Shown one piece after another: positions 2,413 to 19,668 of a stretch of DNA of 64,000 bases. Positions within the stretch are counted from its first letter, which is position 1, and every line of letters begins with the position of its first letter. Source of the DNA: a bacterium. Lineage in GTDB: Bacteria > UBA8248 > JACPRG01 > G963555815. The DNA is taken from contig OZ244653.1 in NCBI GenBank assembly GCA_965218795.1, positions 2,688,001 to 2,752,000 of the forward strand, written 5' to 3'. Position numbers and translations under genes: made by a program. The notes under the pieces are model-generated. The model worked only from the letters and a program-made list of their open reading frames with translations, was not told where the DNA came from and did not search any database.

Positions 2413-2539
2413 CTCATTATCATGAGCGCCTCGTGCATACCGGGACAAACTCCTCGGAATCCCTTGTTGGACCTCAGAGTGACCAGCGCCCGATCCAGAA
2501 CGTCCCGCGTAAAAATATGTCAGTTCTTAAGTTTATGTA

Positions 2540-2575
2540 TTGACAATGTCAGCATATAGAGATATTATACTGACA
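2540..2575 (+). promoter_or_regulatory. Sigma70 promoter with overlapping palindromic operator
   Basis: TTGACA (2540-2545), 17 bp, TATTAT (2563-2568). Inverted repeat TGTCAGCATA..TATACTGACA (2547-2575). RBS AGGAGG precedes ATG 2588. Confidence 0.8.
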
Positions 2576-2587
2576 CAGGAGGTTGCG

Positions 2588-3163
2588 ATGACGGATGGAC
2601 CGTTCAGAAACGCTACGCTGAGCAGCCGATGGAAGCAGTACGGCAAAGATCTCGTGAGCGACGCTGCAAGCTCGGAAGAGCGCGCCGCCCAGGCGTGCCA
2701 CAGCATGCTCGGCGACGTAGACATGAAAGCGTTTGGTTCGCTCTTGAACGTACTCAAAGCGCATGCTCAGAGGCCCCAGATGGATATGGACCCGATTTCC
2801 TCAGTCGAGGCCATTTTCGACGGCCACGCGAGACCGATTCTAACTGAAACCCTCCAGAAGCACCTAATCGCCAACCTCCGAGATCGGGTTCCTGGCGAGA
2901 AAGCACTGGATCAGGCGCTATCGAGAACTGTTACGGACTGGATCGACATCACCAAGAACCGACTCGATGAGCAGTGCATCCGCGCTCGTGACCTCGGCGA
3001 AATGAGCGATGAGAACTGTCGCAAAGGAATCGAGCGCAACCACGAAGCCTTTGACGCCATAAGACCAAATGAACTCTGCGACACCCTGGTCTCCGGCAAC
3101 GGGCGCGCCTTCAAGCAAGTCACTAGAATGAAAGTGGGCGTGGATGAGGGCCCCGACGAATGA
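2588..3163 (+). CDS. Hypothetical helical protein, first gene of QueC-like operon (QatB-like position)
   Basis: Strong RBS then ATG 2588 (MTDGPFRN...). Stop overlaps next start (ATGA at 3160). Confidence 0.75.
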   Translation: MTDGPFRNATLSSRWKQYGKDLVSDAASSEERAAQACHSMLGDVDMKAFGSLLNVLKAHAQRPQMDMDPISSVEAIFDGHARPILTETLQKHLIANLRDRVPGEKALDQALSRTVTDWIDITKNRLDEQCIRARDLGEMSDENCRKGIERNHEAFDAIRPNELCDTLVSGNGRAFKQVTRMKVGVDEGPDE

Positions 3164-4548
3164 GCACCGAGCTGAATGGTTCACAAACGAAAGCCAAGCG
3201 TCTGCACGTCATTGAGAAAGGCCAAATGCCCGACTGTACCTGCCCGAAAGATGCGGTGACGGCTATGGTTAGCCGAGAAATCACCTTCAACGCGACTGTT
3301 CTTGATACCTTCGATGTAAAGGGTTTTCAGCCCGTGCACTACGACCTGTTGGTGTTGTGCGCGGCCATGGAGTTTGCCGACCGCCGCTGGAAGCGCCCAC
3401 GGGGCTGGAATCGCAACCTGCACGTTACGGTTCCGGTCATTGACCTTGAGACCTGGCAAAATCGCGAAGTGCTGGAGAGCTTCCATAACGTGCAACGTCA
3501 CCTTACGTGTGATGATTGGAAATGGACTTTCGTGCAGGCGAAAAACCCATCTCCGATTGGCGAGCGCCAAGGCGCTCTAAACTTCCCGAACACTAAGACC
3601 TTCGCTATCGCCTATAGTGATGGATTGGACTCGCGTGCAGTCGCTGCTTTGAGTGGGGATAGGGATGAAGCCCTTTGCATCCGGCTCACAAAATTTCGCC
3701 AACGTCGGAAGACCGGCGACAGTTACTTTTCTCAGATCCCATTCAAAGTTCATGGACACCCGAGCAACGAGAGTAGTTTCCGGTCTCGTGGGTTTCAGTT
3801 TGCGGCAGTGACGGCGATTGCCGCTCACTTGTCGAATGTAACCCGGATCACGGTTCCGGAGAGCGGTCAGAGCGCTCTAGGCCCAGTGCTGCTGCCTCTT
3901 CACAATATCTACCCTGATTACCGCAACTACCCGACGTTCTTCCGGAAGATGGAGCGGTTCATCAAGGCGCTGTTGCGCCATCAGGTCCACTACGAACAAC
4001 CACGCCTATGGTACACGAAAGGCCAGACGATACAGGCATTTCTGGACCTTCCCGGTAAGCGCGAACACGACCTCACCAGCACGCGATCCTGCTGGCAAAA
4101 CCGCCGAATCGTGAACAGCGGGGGCAGCAAGAAGCATTGCGGCCTATGTGCAGCCTGCCTGCTCAGACGCCAGAGTCTGCACGCAGCCGCCGTCACTGAG
4201 ATGCCAGCCACCTACGTGGTTTCAGATCTGAGTACTTCGGATGTGACCAAGGCCTTATCCATCATCCCGCAGACTGCCGACCGGGACATTATGGTCGAGT
4301 ATGGCAGCGTCGGTGCGCGGCATTTGCAACATCTCGCCGATATGGCAATTCTACCAGATGACGATCTCCGTGGGCATGTATGGGAAATCGCGGCAGCAAC
4401 CGGTGCGACCTTTCAAGAAACCCTGAAGAACCTGAGAACTCTACTGGCGAAGCATGCGGAAGAATGGCGGGCATTTTTATCTGCCCAAGGAGAACAAAGC
4501 TTCTTGAAGAGCTGGATGGATGGAGGACGTTATGGCCGATCTGAATGA
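3160..4548 (+). CDS. QatC-like / 7-cyano-7-deazaguanine synthase (QueC)-family PP-loop protein
   Basis: PP-loop variant YSDGLDS, ESSFRSRGFQF, YTKGQ, Zn site SCW...HCGLCAACLLRR, and N-terminal DLL..AA.E.ADR...W.R.L.V.VPV extension typical of defence-type QueC proteins. 462 aa, about twice housekeeping QueC. Confidence 0.85.
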   Translation: MSTELNGSQTKAKRLHVIEKGQMPDCTCPKDAVTAMVSREITFNATVLDTFDVKGFQPVHYDLLVLCAAMEFADRRWKRPRGWNRNLHVTVPVIDLETWQNREVLESFHNVQRHLTCDDWKWTFVQAKNPSPIGERQGALNFPNTKTFAIAYSDGLDSRAVAALSGDRDEALCIRLTKFRQRRKTGDSYFSQIPFKVHGHPSNESSFRSRGFQFAAVTAIAAHLSNVTRITVPESGQSALGPVLLPLHNIYPDYRNYPTFFRKMERFIKALLRHQVHYEQPRLWYTKGQTIQAFLDLPGKREHDLTSTRSCWQNRRIVNSGGSKKHCGLCAACLLRRQSLHAAAVTEMPATYVVSDLSTSDVTKALSIIPQTADRDIMVEYGSVGARHLQHLADMAILPDDDLRGHVWEIAAATGATFQETLKNLRTLLAKHAEEWRAFLSAQGEQSFLKSWMDGGRYGRSE

Positions 4549-5722
4549 GTTGAGTGCACAGGAAATCGGCCGACGCCTTCGGCTGGCGCGCGAGAACGCG
4601 GGCATACGACAGGATGATGCAGCCCAGTTCATTGACATGTCACGCCCGACCCTGGTCTCGATTGAGAAAGGGGCGCGCAGTGTACGTATTCAGGAGCTCC
4701 AAGTGCTGGCCCGCCACTACGGCGTATCGGTGAACGCCCTCCTCCGCCGCGAGGCCGTTCATACGGATCTCGTGCCCCGCTTCCGGAGACTGCGGGAAAC
4801 GGAGGACAAGCATAAGGCTGAAGCCATTCAGCTTTTCAATGACCTGATCAAGGCGGACGTCGAGTTGGAAAATATGCTCGGCATCGAGCGGCGCCGGAAC
4901 TATCCGCCGGACCGCGGCATCAATGAGGGCAACGTTCTGACTTTGGCCGAGAATCATGCCCAAGAGTTGCGCGACTGGCTGGGTCTCGGTCCAGGACCGA
5001 TTGCCGACATATTCTCGATCATAGAGCTGGGTCTCGGCATTCGTCTTTATCAGCGCCGCCTATCATCCAAATCCAGAGTGGCGGGTTTGTTCACTTACGA
5101 TGATACCGTTGGCACCTGCATTCTTCTTAACGCCAACCATCCGCTGCCTCGGCGTATCCAGTCGGCCGCGCACGAACTCGGCCACTTCTACGGGACCCGC
5201 AACACTCCGGAGATACTTGAAGAGGACGAGAGATTTTTGTCTCGCGACGAGCGCTACGCCAACGCCTTTGGTCGCGCATTGTTGACACCCGCCGAGAGCT
5301 TCAAAGAAAGCTTCCGGCAATTGAAAGAGATCACTGGCAAGACCACCCGACGGCTGATCATTTTACTTTCCCAGCAATACAATATCTCCCGCCAGGCATG
5401 CGGACTACGTCTGGAGGAGCTTGGCATTACGAAAAAGGGGACGTGGGATTGGTTTGAGAAGAACGGCAGCATTACGGAGGATCACGTGCGGGAGGTGCTT
5501 GGCGAGATGGCCAATCGACCTGACCCTGCCAAGACCGACGCCGACCGTCCGATTTCCCACCGGATGAGCCTGATGGTCCATGCCGCCTGGAAACGTGACC
5601 TCATGTCGGAAGGCCAACTGACGGAACTGCTCAAGGTTGGTCGCGTCGAACTTCGGAATATCATCGACCAGATCGAGCTTGAGGATAGCGAGACGGATGA
5701 CCTACTCAAGCTCCCTGGCTGA
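4532..5722 (+). CDS. XRE-family HTH fused to ImmA/IrrE (M78) metallopeptidase
   Basis: N-terminal IGRRLRLARENAGIRQDDAA..SRPTLVSIEKG HTH, HExxH motif AAHELGH, then ERYANAFG. RBS GGAGG before ATG 4532, which overlaps the QueC stop. Confidence 0.9.
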   Translation: MADLNELSAQEIGRRLRLARENAGIRQDDAAQFIDMSRPTLVSIEKGARSVRIQELQVLARHYGVSVNALLRREAVHTDLVPRFRRLRETEDKHKAEAIQLFNDLIKADVELENMLGIERRRNYPPDRGINEGNVLTLAENHAQELRDWLGLGPGPIADIFSIIELGLGIRLYQRRLSSKSRVAGLFTYDDTVGTCILLNANHPLPRRIQSAAHELGHFYGTRNTPEILEEDERFLSRDERYANAFGRALLTPAESFKESFRQLKEITGKTTRRLIILLSQQYNISRQACGLRLEELGITKKGTWDWFEKNGSITEDHVREVLGEMANRPDPAKTDADRPISHRMSLMVHAAWKRDLMSEGQLTELLKVGRVELRNIIDQIELEDSETDDLLKLPG

Positions 5723-6401
5723 TGACCTTAGACCGCTGGTTCTCGATACGAGTGTTCTGATCAACCTCTACGCCTGCAGCTACGGCGAGCGCATTCTAAC
5801 GGCCATTCCCAACGACATCATCGTTCCGCAGGTCGTAGCCGCGGAGCTCGAACACGAAACGAGTCGCAAGAAGGGCGAACACGGTTTTTTGCATGGCCTA
5901 ATAGCCGGAGGAAAGGTGACGCTCGGCGAAATGTCCGACGAGGAGAATGCACTCTTCGCCAATCTCACTTCCGGCCCCCAATCCCTCGACGATGGCGAAG
6001 CCGCGACGATTGCGATTGGGGCCAAACGACAGCTCCTTCCGCTCATAGACGATCGAAAGGGGCGAGCACAGGCCATTCAAGTCCTGCGTGGGCGAGAACC
6101 GGGCTGGTCCATCGACCTGTTTCGCCATGCCCCTGTAACTTCTGCCTTGGGGAACACTGCTGCTATCGAAGCTCTGTATCAGGCGCTTCTCAATGGGAGA
6201 ATGCGCGTCCCCGTCGAAAGCACCGAGTACATTATTGATCTCCTCGGCAGCGAGCGGGCAAGAGACTGTACCTGCCTCCCGGATTATCGGAAACTCTTCG
6301 GGCAATCCATGAACCGACATTCGGTAGAGAAACAAGAAGAACACCAGATAATTTATGGATCTAAATCAGGCACAGGCCGGGGGGAAGGTCGGTCTGTTTA
6401 G
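5697..6401 (+). CDS. PIN-domain nuclease (DUF3368-like)
   Basis: VLDTSVLINL, V.AELE, LDDGEAATIA, LIDDRKGR acidic PIN motifs. Start overlaps the upstream gene. Confidence 0.85.
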   Translation: MTYSSSLADDLRPLVLDTSVLINLYACSYGERILTAIPNDIIVPQVVAAELEHETSRKKGEHGFLHGLIAGGKVTLGEMSDEENALFANLTSGPQSLDDGEAATIAIGAKRQLLPLIDDRKGRAQAIQVLRGREPGWSIDLFRHAPVTSALGNTAAIEALYQALLNGRMRVPVESTEYIIDLLGSERARDCTCLPDYRKLFGQSMNRHSVEKQEEHQIIYGSKSGTGRGEGRSV

Positions 6402-10544: not shown

Positions 10545-11468
10545 TCAGGCGGCGACACACTGGACCGGGATCCCGAGCTTGCGCGCCTTGTCCACCAGAT
10601 TGTCCGTGATGCCCGAACCCGGGAACGCGATGACGCCCTTGGGGAGGAGATCGAGCAGCTCGTCATTGCGCCGGAAGGGAGCGGCGCGTCCGTGTGCGTC
10701 CCAGTCGGGCTTGCAGACGATCTGGTGGACGCCGTTGCGATCCGCCCACTTGGCCGCGATCTTCTCGACGCCGGGGCCGCCTCCGTGGACCAGGACCACG
10801 TCGTCGTACTTGGCCTTGAGCCTCTCGAGGGTGCGGATGATGGCGCCTGCGTCGCCGGCCTGCTTGCCGCCTGCCACCGCCACGAGGGTTCCCTGGGGCA
10901 GGAGCGCCTTGTTCTCGCGGTCCCTGCGGGCACGCTGGAAGTCTCGGGCGTCGATCATGGCCGAAGTGAGCTTGCCGGTCTGGGAGGTGTGGGACCCGCG
11001 CCGGGGCCGCCAGAGGTCTCCGGTCTCGACCCGGTAGGCCTCGGCCGCTGTATCGCGGAGTTGCTCGAAGGCGTCCCGCCGGTCCGTGAGGTTCTTGGTT
11101 CGGTCGGTGATGAGTTCGAGCTCTCGGGACTTGAACTCGGAGCCGTCCTGCTCGCGCTGGAGGTCGCGCATCTCGGGTACGAGCCTGTCGGCCGCGCGGT
11201 CGAGGCGCTGGGTCTGGGCGTCGAGCATGTTGACGAAGCCCCAGAGCAGGCTCTCGCGCTCGTCGGCGAGTTGCGTTCCGTCGGGCGCGACGCCGTGTGC
11301 CATGATGCGGAAGGCTTCCGTGACGGCGGAGATCGCGTTCTCCGGGTCCCAGAGCTCCCGGTTGTCGAATTCGTCTTGCTCCGGGGTAGCGCCGAAGAGA
11401 GCCGCCTGGTCGCAGACGGTGGCGGTGACGGACTGCGCTTGCGCTTGGATGTTGTCGATATCGTTCAT
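10545..11468 (-). CDS. DUF2493 (SLOG/YspA-like) plasmid protein
   Basis: C-terminal VAVAGG..VLVHGGGPGVEKIAAKWA...AAPFRRND..FPGSGIT SLOG motifs. RBS AAGGAG. Confidence 0.85.
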   Translation of the reverse strand: MNDIDNIQAQAQSVTATVCDQAALFGATPEQDEFDNRELWDPENAISAVTEAFRIMAHGVAPDGTQLADERESLLWGFVNMLDAQTQRLDRAADRLVPEMRDLQREQDGSEFKSRELELITDRTKNLTDRRDAFEQLRDTAAEAYRVETGDLWRPRRGSHTSQTGKLTSAMIDARDFQRARRDRENKALLPQGTLVAVAGGKQAGDAGAIIRTLERLKAKYDDVVLVHGGGPGVEKIAAKWADRNGVHQIVCKPDWDAHGRAAPFRRNDELLDLLPKGVIAFPGSGITDNLVDKARKLGIPVQCVAA

Positions 11469-12093
11469 GATGCTCTCCTTATGGATTGAGTGTAGAGAAC
11501 CGTTATGGTTCGTTGTGCGGAGAGAGTCTCCGAACGTGATGGTTGAGTGGCCCACGCGCGCGCAGCAAAGTCACCGCGGCCGCAAGGCCTGGCGCGGCGA
11601 GGGGCGCGAGTGGTGCGGGCGCACAAGCGACCGCAGGGAGCGCGGAGCCTCGGTCGCGTTTCTTGGCGCGCCTAGGCGCTTTTGCGCCGTAGCCTTGCGA
11701 GCCAAGGCCGGAACGGAGCGTAGCGGAGAGTAGGACCCCTTGGGGGTTGGCGCCGCGAGCACGTGTGGGACAATGGGCCATCACGTCGAGAGGGATATTG
11801 TTAGCGATTGGCGCGGACCCCCTGGGCGGTTCCGGAATTGAGACCCGGGTCTCGGGCGCCGGCCCGGCAAGCGGAGATTGCAGCGGAGAGCCCGGCCCGA
11901 AGGCATGGCCCGTCACCGCAACGGACGCGTATCCGCAACCTCGCCGACGCGATTGCCATGGTGGTGGACCCTCGACTCGTACGGGGCGATGCACTTGAAA
12001 GTGACGGATTGCATGGTGCGGTTCTCCTTCCGTGTTGCCGATGCCCGGGGGGCTCTCTCTCCCTCCTCGCGGCGTTCGCTCCCCTCTCCAGCT

Positions 12094-16334: not shown

Positions 16335-17390
16335 TCAAGTATTAGTTGAGGCGGTAAGGACCCGGTAGATTTCGCGGGCCACGTAGCGCTTCAGACAACG
16401 CATCACCTCTCGTTTGGACAGTCCTTCCTGGGTACGCCGCGCAACGTAGGCTCGGGTTTGCTGGTCGGTCCGCATCCGGCAGATGACGACCATGTGCAGG
16501 GCTGAGTTGGCTTGGCGGTTCCCGCCGCGGTTGAGGCGGTGGCGTTGCGTCTTCCCGCTTGAGGCTGGGATTGGGCAGGCGCCACACATCATCGCGAAGC
16601 TCGCCTCGGAGCGCAGCCGGTCCGAATTCTCCCCCGCGGCGACCATCAGTTCGCCAGCGTTCTCGATTCCCACGCCTTCGAGCTGGAGCAGATTGGGCGC
16701 GAGCTCCTCGACCAGCGGACCGATGAATCGATCGAGGTCGGCGATCTCGTCGTTCAGGTCCAGGATCCTGCGGGCGAGGGACTTCAGCGAGAGCCTGGTC
16801 GCGACCACCGGGTCTCGGTATCCCACGGTGTCCGGCCTCCAAGCCGCACAAGTGCGCAGGCGCTGCATCCGGGTGAGATGGCGGACTTGGTCGCGCACCT
16901 CCTCGGGTGCAGCGACGATCGTGTTGTGAAGCTGCTGCAGTGCCGCACGACGGCACTTCATCGCCGTCTTTCGAGTCGTGCGCAGCACCCGCAAGGCTTC
17001 CACCGCACCGCAACGGTCTTTGGCCACCTGCACGCGACGTCTGGTTCGAGCCGCCTCAGCCACCGCGACCGCATCGAGCACATCGTCTTTGCCTTTGGCT
17101 CTTCGACCCGCTCGGTCGGGACCGGTCACCTCGAGCACGGGCACGCCCGACAGCGCCAGGTGGCGGGTAATGCCGGCCCCGTAAGTCCCCGTGGATTCGA
17201 CCCCTACGCGAAGCAACTCCCCGTGAGACCGGAACCAGCGAAGCATCGCCCGGTAGCCGGCCCGGGTGGTGGAGAACAATTCGGTGCCGAGTACTGCTCC
17301 ATCAAGGTCCACAATGGCAGCGGTGTGCAGGTCCTGGTGGGTATCGACGCCTCCGATGATCTCATTGCGCTCCGGTATCCTGTTCGTCAT
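16335..17390 (-). CDS. IS110 DEDD recombinase/transposase (intact)
   Basis: IGGVDTH, VGVESTGTYG, GKDDVLDA, PIPASSG (catalytic Ser), GGNRQAN. Confidence 0.95.
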   Translation of the reverse strand: MTNRIPERNEIIGGVDTHQDLHTAAIVDLDGAVLGTELFSTTRAGYRAMLRWFRSHGELLRVGVESTGTYGAGITRHLALSGVPVLEVTGPDRAGRRAKGKDDVLDAVAVAEAARTRRRVQVAKDRCGAVEALRVLRTTRKTAMKCRRAALQQLHNTIVAAPEEVRDQVRHLTRMQRLRTCAAWRPDTVGYRDPVVATRLSLKSLARRILDLNDEIADLDRFIGPLVEELAPNLLQLEGVGIENAGELMVAAGENSDRLRSEASFAMMCGACPIPASSGKTQRHRLNRGGNRQANSALHMVVICRMRTDQQTRAYVARRTQEGLSKREVMRCLKRYVAREIYRVLTASTNT

Positions 17391-17439
17391 GTCCGCTCTC
17401 CGATCTATGATGGGTGAAGGGATCGGAACCGAACTCAGC

Positions 17440-17600
17440 CGATGTCGGACACGACAGGGAAGGGACGCCTTGGGCCAGGCTCTCATCAGGTCACGATGTC
17501 GGTCGAGGTCGGAACCTCAACCGGTTGCCCCTGGGTGGCCGACAAGTCAAGGGAACGACACCACGGTCAACCAGAGTGTGGGTCAAGCCACCCTGGGGCG
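17440..17600 (-). ncRNA. Putative bridge RNA of IS110 #1
   Basis: Loop segments ATGAGAGC and TCCCTG match the element's own two ends. A second stem-enclosed loop partly matches the insertion site. Boundaries approximate. Confidence 0.6.
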
Positions 17601-18302: not shown

Positions 18303-19668
18303 CTAAGAAACTGCCTCCGCACCCTCCTGCAGAACATACCCCAGAGAAGCGGCCCGTCGGCGAAGATTCTTCACCACACGCTGACGATAACGCTCTTCAT
18401 AGTATGAAGCGCCGGGATCCACATACTTCTGCCCATATCGCAGCGTGTTGTATAGCAGGACCGCAATCTTTCGGGCGGTGGCAGTCACCGCCTTGGCCTT
18501 GCCGATCCGCGCCGACAATCGACGATAGAACGCTCCGAGCGCGGTCTCGGTCCTGCCCACCGCCACCGCCGCCAGACGCAGCACCGCAGCGGCCCGATTC
18601 GACGTACGGCGCGTTCTCGAGGCCAGAACGCGTCCACCGGAGATCTTGTTCGCCGGCGCCAATGCAAGCCACGACGTGAAGTGCTTCGCGCTCGGCCATC
18701 GAGACATATCCGTCCCACATTCGGCGATGATCTTCAGCGCAAGGTAGGGGCCGACTCCGTGAATCTGGGTCAGGTCTACGCCGAGCAACGCATACAGGGC
18801 GCCTCGTACGTCGAAGTTCAATCCGTTGGGCTGACGCGCCTTGTGCCGAGGCGCGGGCAGCGCCGCCGACGGCTCATCGACGCCATCACTGAGGCGACCC
18901 AGGACCGCCTCGATTTCCTGGTCGCAGCGAGCCACTTGTGCTTGATACACATCGTACAGCTCCAGGGCCTGTCTCAGCGCAAAGACGTGCTCGCGTTGGT
19001 AATGCCCGACAAGCGCTTCACGGATCGTCTCGCGTGAGGATTTACAACGGCTGTCGCGCCATGCCGCGAGTAAGTCGGGGTCGACGACCCCCGACGCGAT
19101 CGCCCGAATCATCCGCAGCCCCGTCACCCCCGTGATGTCGGACACAACATGGTGAAGCTGAACATTCATCTGGGTCAGCGCCTTTTGCATGTGTTGAATG
19201 TGCGCCGCTGCATAGTCGCAGGAGGCGCTCGCGCTGTCTCAGGTAAGACCGCAACTCTGCGATCCCGCGAGTGGGGCGAAAACTGGCTCGCAACAAACCG
19301 TACTGGTGCAGCTGCTGCAGCCACTGCGCATCGTTCACGTCACTCTTGCGTCCCGGAACCGTCTTCACCTCCCGAGCGTTCACCACGATCACTTCCAATC
19401 CATGCTCTTGAAGGATCTCGAACAACGGGATCCAGTAAACGCCCGTGGACTCCATCGCGACCGTCTCGACCCCAGCCTCTTCGAACCAGTCGGCAAGACG
19501 CTGCAGGTCGTTGGTAAAGGTCTTGAAGGTGCGTACGGGCTCGTCAGTACCCTTCGATCCCACCGCGGCCACATGGATTCGCGACCCAATGTCCACCCCC
19601 GCCGCATTGGGATGGACCACCGTCATGCCTCGGGAAGAACGTTTCGTCCTGCGCTTTGTACTCGCCAT
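18303..19668 (-). pseudogene. IS110 transposase, single frameshift near 19220
   Basis: AGVDIGS, MESTGVYW, KSDVNDA in 19042-19668. MQKALTQMN..., KISGG in 18303-19190. Confidence 0.9.

Follow-up and report, generated by a model that had tools for sequence, protein, structure and literature searches.

How does a QatC-like enzyme act if its partner protein does not offer the N-terminal glycine used in the known systems? The question is raised by a four-gene cassette within 64,000 nucleotides (nt) of a bacterial genome (lineage UBA8248; GenBank assembly GCA_965218795.1, contig OZ244653.1, positions 2,688,001 to 2,752,000), a stretch that we call the window and whose numbering is used throughout. 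An earlier note on this DNA had pointed to a YSDGLDS PP-loop and to an upstream protein beginning M-T-D-G-P, and both are present in the span 2588-3640, which comprises gene 1 and the first third of gene 2. By sequence comparison the cassette is a variant of the QatBC type, marked by an X-D-G-P tip on the partner, an S-[D/E/N]-G loop and a Y-x-D-Y-R-N loop in the enzyme, and coupling to a helix-turn-helix (HTH)-M78 protein and a PIN-like protein. In the reading that we prefer, with a probability of about 45%, enzyme and substrate form a pair of the QatBC type whose acceptor tip differs and which is coupled to a Rosmer-like module.

According to four published sources (PMC13279940, PMC13376578, PMC13639016, bioRxiv 10.1101/2025.04.06.647259), QatB and the cGAS/DncV-like nucleotidyltransferase (CD-NTase) of type IV CBASS, an antiphage signaling system based on cyclic oligonucleotides, expose Gly2 through removal of Met, and the tail enters the active site of the QueC-family enzyme, in agreement with the acceptor rule on which the earlier note was built. 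A G2D substitution abolishes defence in the published QatB and CdnD systems (PMC13279940 and related papers). Cap9 conjugates 7-amido-7-deazaguanine to Gly2, and the QatB adduct has been detected at the peptide level only (same papers); one study could not reconstitute the QatC reaction, and another detected only traces of it.

The gene 1 protein begins M-T-D-G-P-F-R-N. Its start codon, the ATG at 2588, is secure on sequence grounds because it follows an AGGAGG ribosome-binding site and a promoter (2540-2568) in a layout that is kept in 24 loci. Of 120 close homologues, 117 have an N-terminus of the form M-x?-DGP, as do 91 of 109 representatives clustered at 50% identity, which came from searching 1.84 billion cluster representatives with a profile; the other 18 representatives are 17 fragments and one MTDGL. 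M1, D3, G4 and P5 are the sole invariant columns in an alignment of 56 gene 1 sequences of 18-47% identity (alignment A3), and G188 is nearly invariant. The codons for M-T/S-D-G-P vary synonymously between loci, so the constraint acts on the protein. Residue 2, by contrast with the tripeptide that follows, is variable: among 208 N-termini it is T in 135, S in 41, V in 6, A in 5, P in 4, I in 3, M in 3, N in 1 and D in 1, and is absent in 9, while Gly occurs at this position in none of the 208. Of the proposed M[ST]DGP signature, D-G-P is therefore the conserved part and the restriction of residue 2 to Ser or Thr does not hold. After Met processing predicted by the rule stated in PMC13279940, exactly one residue is left before Asp in 200 of the 208 N-termini, the MDGP forms that keep Met included. 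The departure of this family from the N-terminal Gly rule, as the earlier note had proposed, is thus borne out, and the acceptor chemistry must differ in some way.

A second motif, [D/E]-G-P, recurs near the other end of the protein, at a distance of three to five residues from the C-terminus. With the last 12 residues scored, 116 of 120 close homologues have it, as do 53 of the 72 representatives of full length. This C-terminal motif mirrors the N-terminal D-G-P and sits in a disordered tail. Covariation of gene 1 residue 2 with position 2 of the gene 2 PP-loop was not seen, in a sample limited to T or S at residue 2. A metagenome scan was seeded with M[TS]DGPF[KR]N, and the 76 loci from it serve for the content of genes 2 to 4 only, not for N-terminal conservation.

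Gene 1 appears to play the role of QatB while forming a separate family that is not demonstrably QatB. The AlphaFold2 (AF2) model (predicted local distance difference test, pLDDT, 85.6) has eight helices, a free N-terminal tail at residues 1-12 and a disordered C-terminal tail at 176-191. Pfam, PADLOC and NCBIfam gave no match at E≤0.1, and the sequences of the PDB gave chance-level helical matches only (E≥0.11). Profile comparison (hhalign) with two QatB-type proteins was not significant (E 0.012 at a probability of 3.5%, and E 0.34). In fold searches (Foldseek against the PDB and two VIA-align runs) no QatB chain was among the matches listed, which does not prove that the folds differ; the best fold match was BopN, with a Z score of 8.2 that is generic for helical proteins. 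The ESM Atlas returned unnamed clusters and helical bundles of the GBP/Sey1 type at 0.90-0.92, matches of low recognition that we set aside as uninformative. Across the 109 representatives the family consists of proteins of about 190 amino acids (aa) or fragments, apart from an apparent chimera of 418 aa (P0307), and none has the QatB length of about 265 aa. Residues 13-17 of gene 1, S-R-W-K-Q, stand in register with R-G-W-K-Q of a QatB-type partner from the same phylum (locus L113), an observation that we regard as a lead only.

Gene 2 is almost certainly QatC-like and lies within the described cassette architecture. The QatC-like identity of the enzyme is supported by PADLOC, the PDB, Foldseek and hhalign alike. 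The PADLOC QatC model matched with an E value of 3.6e-28, and the NCBIfam QatC model (NF041925) with 107.2 bits in two stretches, below its cut-off of 280; canonical QueC (TIGR00364) reached 24.8 bits against a cut-off of 150.3, and the Pfam QueC family matches aa 250-342 only. Comparison with the solved QatC sequences of E. coli and P. aeruginosa gave E values of 2.1e-11 and 6.2e-9, the match to PDB 9vlk (2.1e-11) covering aa 59-358. Foldseek aligned the AF2 model to the QatC chain 9y01_B over 482 columns (E 4e-12; template modelling scores 0.59/0.62), compared with E values of only 2e-2 for QueC and 0.35 for Cap9 (9nto_B), and hhalign paired gene 2 with a QatC of the same phylum over aa 54-355 (probability 98.9, E 1.9e-17). 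The QatC signature motifs, taken as those of cluster 2 of the PF06508 sequence similarity network in PMC13329287, were located by inspection: D62, D74-x4-R79..W83-x-R85, D118-x-W120-x3-F124 and R208-x-R210-x3-F214, then E234-x-G236, P281-x4-T286-K287 and C311..C327-G-x-C330-x2-C333-x2-RR. They are invariant in an alignment of 52 gene 2 sequences (alignment A2), with the spacer before WxR four residues shorter; the four cysteines and the RR pair, likewise invariant, fit the C..CGxCxxRR pattern reported for QatC in the same paper. The RefSeq name '7-cyano-7-deazaguanine synthase' carried by gene 2 homologues is very probably a misnomer.

The PP-loop of gene 2, Y152-S-D-G-L-D-S158, is encoded at 3613-3633. 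Its second position reads SDG in 98 of the 120 closest homologues, SNG in 11, SEG in 7, SKG in 2 and SGG in 2. In 88 genome and metagenome loci the loop is SDGLDS (55), SEGLDS (19), SNGLDS (10), SGGLDS (2), SDGIDS (1) or SKGLDS (1), so that 85 of the 88 have D, E or N at position 2, and plasmid homologues at 35% identity keep SDG[L/M]DS. S153, G155, D157 and S158 are invariant in the 52-sequence alignment. Of the amino acids, it is Asp, Asn and Gly that accept left-handed backbone angles most readily. We read position 2 as structurally permissive because it accepts D, E, N, K and G. The Asp of the SDG loop is probably a replacement that keeps the geometry, neither a new catalytic group nor an inactivating change. 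The earlier note had taken SDG as a sign of unusual chemistry; catalytic novelty is unlikely given this variation, and alignment of the homologues shows that SDG is not private to this protein and that the N-terminus of the partner is conserved. Since the four PP-loop residues and the four cysteines are invariant, gene 2 is likely to be catalytically competent.

The structure predicted for the two proteins together suggests that they interact. With ESMFold2 the gene 1-gene 2 complex scored an ipSAE of 0.88 (runs of 0.86, 0.88 and 0.89), compared with 0.01 for the best of three controls; of 157 solved complexes, 116 attain the mark used for this score, as do 2 of 215 mismatched pairs. The runs share at least 84% of their contacts, and the pLDDT of the partner is at least 82. 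On the gene 1 side the predicted interface comprises residues 3-9 and 12 of the N-terminal tail together with helices 78-99 and 120-152, the C-terminal tail lying outside its confident part. On the gene 2 side it comprises residues 81-84 (W-x-R), 110-117, 246-252 (the end of the long loop), 312, 330-331, 362-409 and 451-459, and it takes in the C-terminal extension. The model resembles the QatBC crystals as published, in which the tail lies in the cleft, the long loop rests on the partner helices and the C-terminal extension contributes. We consider it likely on this model that gene 1 binds gene 2.

A further difference from QatC lies in the substrate loop. Gene 2 has Y-x-D-Y-R-N-[H/Y/F]-P where QatC has T-R-T-T-H-P, and Y251, D253, Y254, R255, N256 and P258 are invariant in the 52 sequences; the pattern DYRN[HYF]P occurs in 73 loci. 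Across the alignments, Tyr and Asp/Asn of this family take the place of the QatC Thr. QatC is reported to carry T-x-T where QueC and Cap9 have Y-x-D (the four papers cited first above). The Y-x-D of gene 2 looks more like the base-binding motif of QueC and Cap9, which may have been retained, and hhalign pairs Y251-P-D253 with F-P-D of a QueC-family protein (probability 88). For the other nucleobase substrate that the earlier note had raised, this likeness has to be set beside a host in which QueE was not detected.

As for the supply of a deazaguanine, the window holds no queD, queE or folE, as the earlier note had said. The host genome, a single contig that is 98.9% complete, encodes FolE2, tRNA-guanine transglycosylase (TGT), a QueC-family protein that scores 79 bits at a cut-off of 150 and a QueD-like protein that scores 75 bits at a cut-off of 89, the QueD-like and FolE2 genes lying outside the window. 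A QueE-like gene is present in three other cassette-bearing genomes of the phylum. The host may salvage rather than make 7-deazaguanines, yet it encodes a QueC-family enzyme of the defence type.

The four genes are, as judged from their distribution, one conserved and horizontally mobile unit. All four occur in order in 30 of 31 genome loci, the 31st ending at a contig end. Among metagenome loci with room downstream of gene 1, 88 of 89 carry gene 2, 79 of 79 carry gene 3 and 70 of 70 carry gene 4. In a set of 72,556 plasmids, a gene 3 homologue (E≤1e-30) occurs in 25 records, which coincide with the 25 that hold the best gene 2 matches, with the genes adjacent, and the cassette remains unseparated down to 35% gene 2 identity. 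Identity between loci is highest for gene 3 (69-97%) and lowest for gene 1 (23-83%). The unit of about 3.9 kb occurs in Rhizobiales, Burkholderiales and other groups, across several phyla, on plasmids and at variable chromosomal sites. Nucleotide homology between loci runs from about 2534, at the promoter, to about 6300, within gene 4, and the flanks differ; the GC content of the cassette is 0.56 compared with 0.62 for the window. On conjugative and mobilizable plasmids it lies next to Lit, AbiEii and N6-methylase genes. The phage collection that we searched contained no relative of gene 2. One Allorhizobium chromosome carries two cassettes 2.2 Mb apart (L003 and L004) with identical tblastn results, which fits recent duplication or mobility.

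PADLOC 2.0 knows parts of the cassette, namely QatC, RmrA and PDC-S70, and has no model for gene 1. No published description of the cassette was found in the literature on QatC/QueC, deazaguanylation and ImmA/IrrE/RosmerTA, the last search being noisy with ordinary-word matches. The QueC-family survey PMC13329287 does not describe it in the portion of its text available, the supplementary tables being visible in part, and a term search of the available supplementary PDF gave neither PF06114 nor Peptidase_M78.

Genes 3 and 4 resemble a Rosmer-type pair. Gene 3 matched Pfam Peptidase_M78 (4.1e-15) and HTH_31 (2e-11), with HTH_3 also matched, as well as PADLOC RmrA (1.4e-17, aa 14-314) and capP (3.4e-13), and carries HELGH at aa 218-222 (nt 5171-5185). 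Gene 4 matched PADLOC PDC-S70 (3.5e-10); its Pfam PIN (17.3 bits, cut-off 23.6) and PIN_4 (16.2 bits, cut-off 21.9) scores are both below threshold, an acidic pattern of LDTS.., ..AAELE.., ..DDGEA.. and ..IDDR.. was recognised by eye only, and some plasmid records name the gene 4 homologue 'PIN domain-containing protein'. ImmA-type antitoxins pair with PIN-like toxins (NetFlax), and ImmA cleaves the HTH repressor ImmR (PMC10440598); IrrE is described as removing the C-terminal dimerisation domain of DdrO. By analogy, we infer that genes 3 and 4 form a Rosmer-like toxin-antitoxin module linked to the gene 1-gene 2 pair. In RefSeq plasmid records the gene 3 homologues are called 'XRE family transcriptional regulator', a name that hides the peptidase domain.

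The cassette has its own control region (Table 1). A promoter scan gave 11 of 12 matches for TTGACA-17-TATTAT at 2540-2568, and the same arrangement of promoter, ribosome-binding site and ATG was found in all 24 related loci printed, with GGAGG kept in each. The half-site arrangement is kept across loci from different phyla, and the pattern TGTCAG..TTGACWWTGTCAG..GACA occurs in 45 of 124 loci, each time directly upstream of gene 1. The TGTCAG sites are probably an operator bound by the HTH-M78 protein of the cassette. The stop codon of gene 1 and the start codon of gene 2 overlap as ATGA. The end of gene 3 and the start of gene 4 overlap by 26 nt, an overlap also annotated in plasmid records, and ATG 4532 is an alternative start for gene 3.

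Table 1. Features of the cassette and its control region, in window coordinates.
Feature	Position (nt)	Strand	Description
Promoter and putative operator	2518-2575	+	-35 TTGACA 2540-2545; -10 TATTAT 2563-2568
TGTCAG half-sites	2518-2523 and 2547-2552 (direct); 2570-2575 (inverted, CTGACA)		Bracket the -35 and -10 elements
Ribosome-binding site AGGAGG	2577-2582	+	5 nt 5' of ATG 2588; read from the sequence
Gene 1	2588-3163	+	191 aa; all-helical partner, QatB-analogous, putative substrate
Gene 1 tip, M1-T2-D3-G4-P5 codons	2588-2602	+	
Gene 1 C-terminal motif, D186-E187-G188-P189	3143-3154	+	
Gene 2	3160-4548	+	462 aa; QatC-like PP-loop ATP pyrophosphatase
Gene 2 PP-loop, S153-D154-G155-L156-D157-S158	3616-3633	+	
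Gene 2 substrate loop, Y251-P-D253-Y254-R255-N256-Y257-P258	3910-3933	+	
Gene 2 Cys4 zinc-knuckle, C311, C327, C330, C333, then R336-R337	4090-4158	+	
Gene 3	4520-5722	+	400 aa; XRE-HTH (aa 15-72) fused to M78/ImmA-IrrE peptidase; RmrA-like
Gene 4	5697-6401	+	234 aa; PIN-like, putative nuclease/toxin

Among the known systems the closest likeness is to the QatB-QatC pair of QatABCD (PDB 9y01/9y02, 9vlk/9vll and 9zee/9zef). Gene 2 and QatC are both proteins of about 460 aa in which extensions at the N- and C-terminus flank a QueC core, and nearly all the signature motifs are shared. As in QatBC, the partner gene lies directly upstream with a stop/start overlap and encodes an all-helical protein with a free N-terminal tail, and the predicted interface involves the tail as well as the C-terminal extension and the long loop that precedes the HP motif. 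The differences begin with the partner, since gene 1 has 191 aa, QatB has about 265 aa, and neither profile nor fold searches matched the two; QatB has the tip M-G-T-S with an essential Gly2, whereas the tip of gene 1 is X-D-G-P. In the enzyme, SGGxDS is replaced by S-[DEN]-G-L-D-S and T-R-T-T-H-P by Y-x-D-Y-R-N-H/Y-P. Compared with canonical QatBC, then, three features are seen in the sequences to have changed together: the acceptor tip, position 2 of the PP-loop and the substrate loop. Two canonical-type QatBC loci of the same phylum have partners beginning MGS and MGHV, the loops SGGFDS and SGGIDS, and TRTTHP. The Qat operon further contains QatA, a KAP NTPase, and QatD, of the TatD family, in place of which the cassette has the HTH-M78 and PIN-like proteins; qatA and qatD occur in only about 34% of cluster-2 neighbourhoods (PMC13329287). 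A same-phylum QatC-type gene (L113, 1348-3216) encodes 622 aa with a C-terminal extension of about 250 aa that is absent from solved QatC.

Type IV CBASS offers a second comparison, as Cap9 (PDB 9nto) likewise belongs to the QueC family, has the N-terminal tail of its partner, CdnD, as its proposed target, and may share with gene 2 the Tyr-x-Asp base-binding element that it has in common with QueC. Cap9 is a minimal protein of about 185 aa, compared with 462 aa for gene 2, it is partnered by a CD-NTase whose tip is G-G-S, and the CD-NTase, Cap10 and Cap11 of that system are absent from the cassette. With canonical QueC, gene 2 shares the PP-loop Rossmann core, the Cys4 zinc site and possibly Tyr-x-Asp, but it is twice as long and the YxQxHxxE, VPxRN and YPDC signatures are not recognisable. 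As to the downstream genes, the fused HTH and M78 domains of gene 3 reproduce the RmrA architecture of RosmerTA, with a small PIN-like putative toxin next to it; RosmerTA is a self-standing two-gene unit with a variable RmrT toxin, whereas the pair described here always forms the last two of four genes. CapH and CapP are separate genes, unlike the fused gene 3.

In the reading that we prefer, gene 1 and gene 2 would associate, the free tail at the N-terminus of gene 1 resting in the enzyme cleft. Normal removal of Met would leave a mature tip X-Asp-Gly-Pro, with X usually Thr or Ser. Gene 2, with its QueC/Cap9-like Tyr-x-Asp, would adenylate a small carboxylate, for which 7-carboxy-7-deazaguanine or a related base is the likeliest candidate, and Asp, Glu or Asn at position 2 of the PP-loop would keep the loop geometry without supplying a new catalytic group. 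The α-amine of residue X would then attack the adenylate, Asp3-Gly4-Pro5 serving as a recognition and positioning (docking) element. The HTH-M78 protein would repress the operon at the TGTCAG sites and restrain the PIN-like nuclease, and the state of the gene 1-gene 2 complex would be relayed to the genes 3-4 module during infection. Within this scheme we propose only tentatively that the acceptor is the α-amine of gene 1 residue 2, and the proposal that a deazaguanine is the first substrate is equally tentative.

Several points weigh against this reading. We infer every one of its chemical and signalling steps, and the role of the cassette as an anti-phage system is putative, by analogy. The acceptor Gly is invariant in QatB and CdnD, while the acceptor residue proposed here is variable, which could equally point to Asp3 or Gly4; moreover, eight of the 208 N-termini (those with I, M, N or D at position 2) are predicted to keep two residues before Asp. 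Residues 1-2 of gene 1 lie outside the confident contacts of the complex model, and the score of that model may in part reflect likeness to QatBC rather than binding, because QatBC complex structures have already been solved. The AF2 model of gene 2 (pLDDT 74.6) is of low confidence at the PP-loop region (151-182) and at loop 235-252, and the register of the substrate loop differs among three alignments (HMMER with QatC, hhalign with QatC, and hhalign with the QueC-like protein). As for substrate supply, QueE was not detected in the host genome by any of four models, each of which was positive in 9-12 of 14 control genomes. Since QueE was not detected and the QueC-like and QueD-like proteins fall under the NCBIfam cut-offs, host-made 7-carboxy-7-deazaguanine is doubtful in this organism, though not in general. 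Finally, gene 2 is frameshifted in three of the 31 genome loci (L014, L029 and L030).

The alternative that fares best, though unlikely, keeps glycine as the acceptor: loss of (M)-X-D, through the M78 peptidase or through a host exopeptidase halted by Gly-Pro, would expose Gly4 for modification. The earlier note had suggested such exposure of Gly4 by the peptidase of the operon. G4 and P5 are indeed invariant, and the confident contacts of the complex model begin at residue 3. A Pro following the new N-terminus would block further aminopeptidase trimming, which fits this alternative. The M78 gene is tied strictly and exclusively to the pair, both in plasmid records (25 of 25) and in metagenome loci (79 of 79), and it is the most conserved gene of the cassette (69-97% identity). 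The QueC-family protein ligases characterised in the sources at hand also use an N-terminal Gly. In our sequence and model analysis, however, no evidence of cleavage was found by which the gene 3 peptidase would process the gene 1 tail, so that the suggestion has gained no support, and in the literature available M78 peptidases cut their cognate repressors (DdrO, ImmR), not N-terminal tripeptides. Non-specific trimming, for its part, would need neither an invariant Asp3 nor the single preceding residue seen in 200 of 208 N-termini. Coupling of the genes has another explanation as well: the RmrA architecture with its own HTH, the adjacent PIN-like gene and the conserved operator would already account for gene 3 through a regulator or antitoxin role.

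It is also improbable, to a slightly greater degree, that the cassette holds two unlinked modules, an ordinary Rosmer-type toxin-antitoxin pair hitch-hiking with a QatBC-like pair. Such an arrangement would agree with reports that QatB and QatC alone suffice against some phages and that RmrA-type antitoxins pair with many toxins, PIN-like ones included (PMC10440598). It is difficult to reconcile with the single shared promoter, with reading frames that overlap or are closely spaced, and with the lack of any separation in loci with room (79 of 79, 70 of 70, 30 of 31 and 25 of 25).

More unlikely still is that gene 2 adenylates the side-chain carboxylate of Asp3, and perhaps that of the C-terminal [D/E]-G-P as well, to give an amide, a succinimide with Gly4 or a cross-link. 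Gene 1 would then be the first substrate and not the nucleophile, and the product would switch on the HTH-M78/PIN module, a scheme to which we give the same low probability. The invariance of Asp3 beside a variable N-terminal residue speaks for it, as do the second motif at the C-terminus (116 of 120 and 53 of 72), the general tendency of PP-loop enzymes to adenylate a carboxyl or keto oxygen (PMC13376578), and a host without detectable QueE in which a small deazaguanine substrate may be absent. The invariant Tyr-x-Asp/Tyr-Arg-Asn loop at the base site of QueC and Cap9 argues instead for a small aromatic substrate, the C-terminal tail lies outside the confident interface, and no precedent was found in the QueC-family literature available.

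That gene 2 is a pseudo-enzyme, the Gly-to-Asp change in the PP-loop abolishing ATP use and leaving a scaffold or sensor for gene 1, would suit the strict conservation of SGGxDS in QatC (PMC13329287), the restriction of the Pfam match to aa 250-342 with a divergent N-terminal Rossmann half around the PP-loop, and the low AF2 confidence at 151-182, but is very improbable against the invariance of S153, G155, D157 and S158 (mutation of the two PP-loop serines kills QatC function; PMC13279940), the occurrence of D, E or N at position 2 in 85 of 88 loci and of G in two, and the retention of the zinc site and the QatC motifs.

Of the loci with a frameshifted gene 2, two are from Bradyrhizobium and one from an uncultured Alphaproteobacteria metagenome-assembled genome; gene 1 is broken too in L030. 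Genes 3 and 4 are intact in all three, so that decay appears to start in the enzyme-partner pair. The cassette lies in a variable region rich in mobile elements. Upstream, a protein with tetratricopeptide repeats (6-1316), consisting of near-identical tandem repeats (motif ..RFG..APELQVEVARALFNKGV..), runs past the start of the window. Between 1400 and 2450 there is no clean long open reading frame (ORF), only short overlapping frames on both strands; homology of the nearest relative (L001) to the window begins at 2174, and this segment is possibly a gene that decayed by the insertion point. Downstream of the cassette are genes for a YspA/SLOG-domain protein and for IS110-family transposases, one complete and one truncated (10545-11555, 16335-17486 and 19042-19668, all on the minus strand), along with ankyrin-repeat ORFs and many unassigned ones.

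The gene 1-gene 2 family amounts to a natural experiment on QatC-type enzymes, in which the same scaffold carries a changed tip, a changed substrate loop and a changed position 2 of the PP-loop, and in which the output appears wired to a repressor-peptidase and a PIN-like nuclease in place of QatA and QatD. If the adenylation of Asp3 were true, it would be a new protein modification for the QueC family and would explain both the broken acceptor-Gly rule and the presence of the cassette in a host without QueE. Being compact, with four genes and their own promoter, as well as widespread and plasmid-borne, the cassette should be easily cloned, and it could tell whether the protein ligases of the QueC family depend on an N-terminal Gly or whether this residue is only one solution among others.

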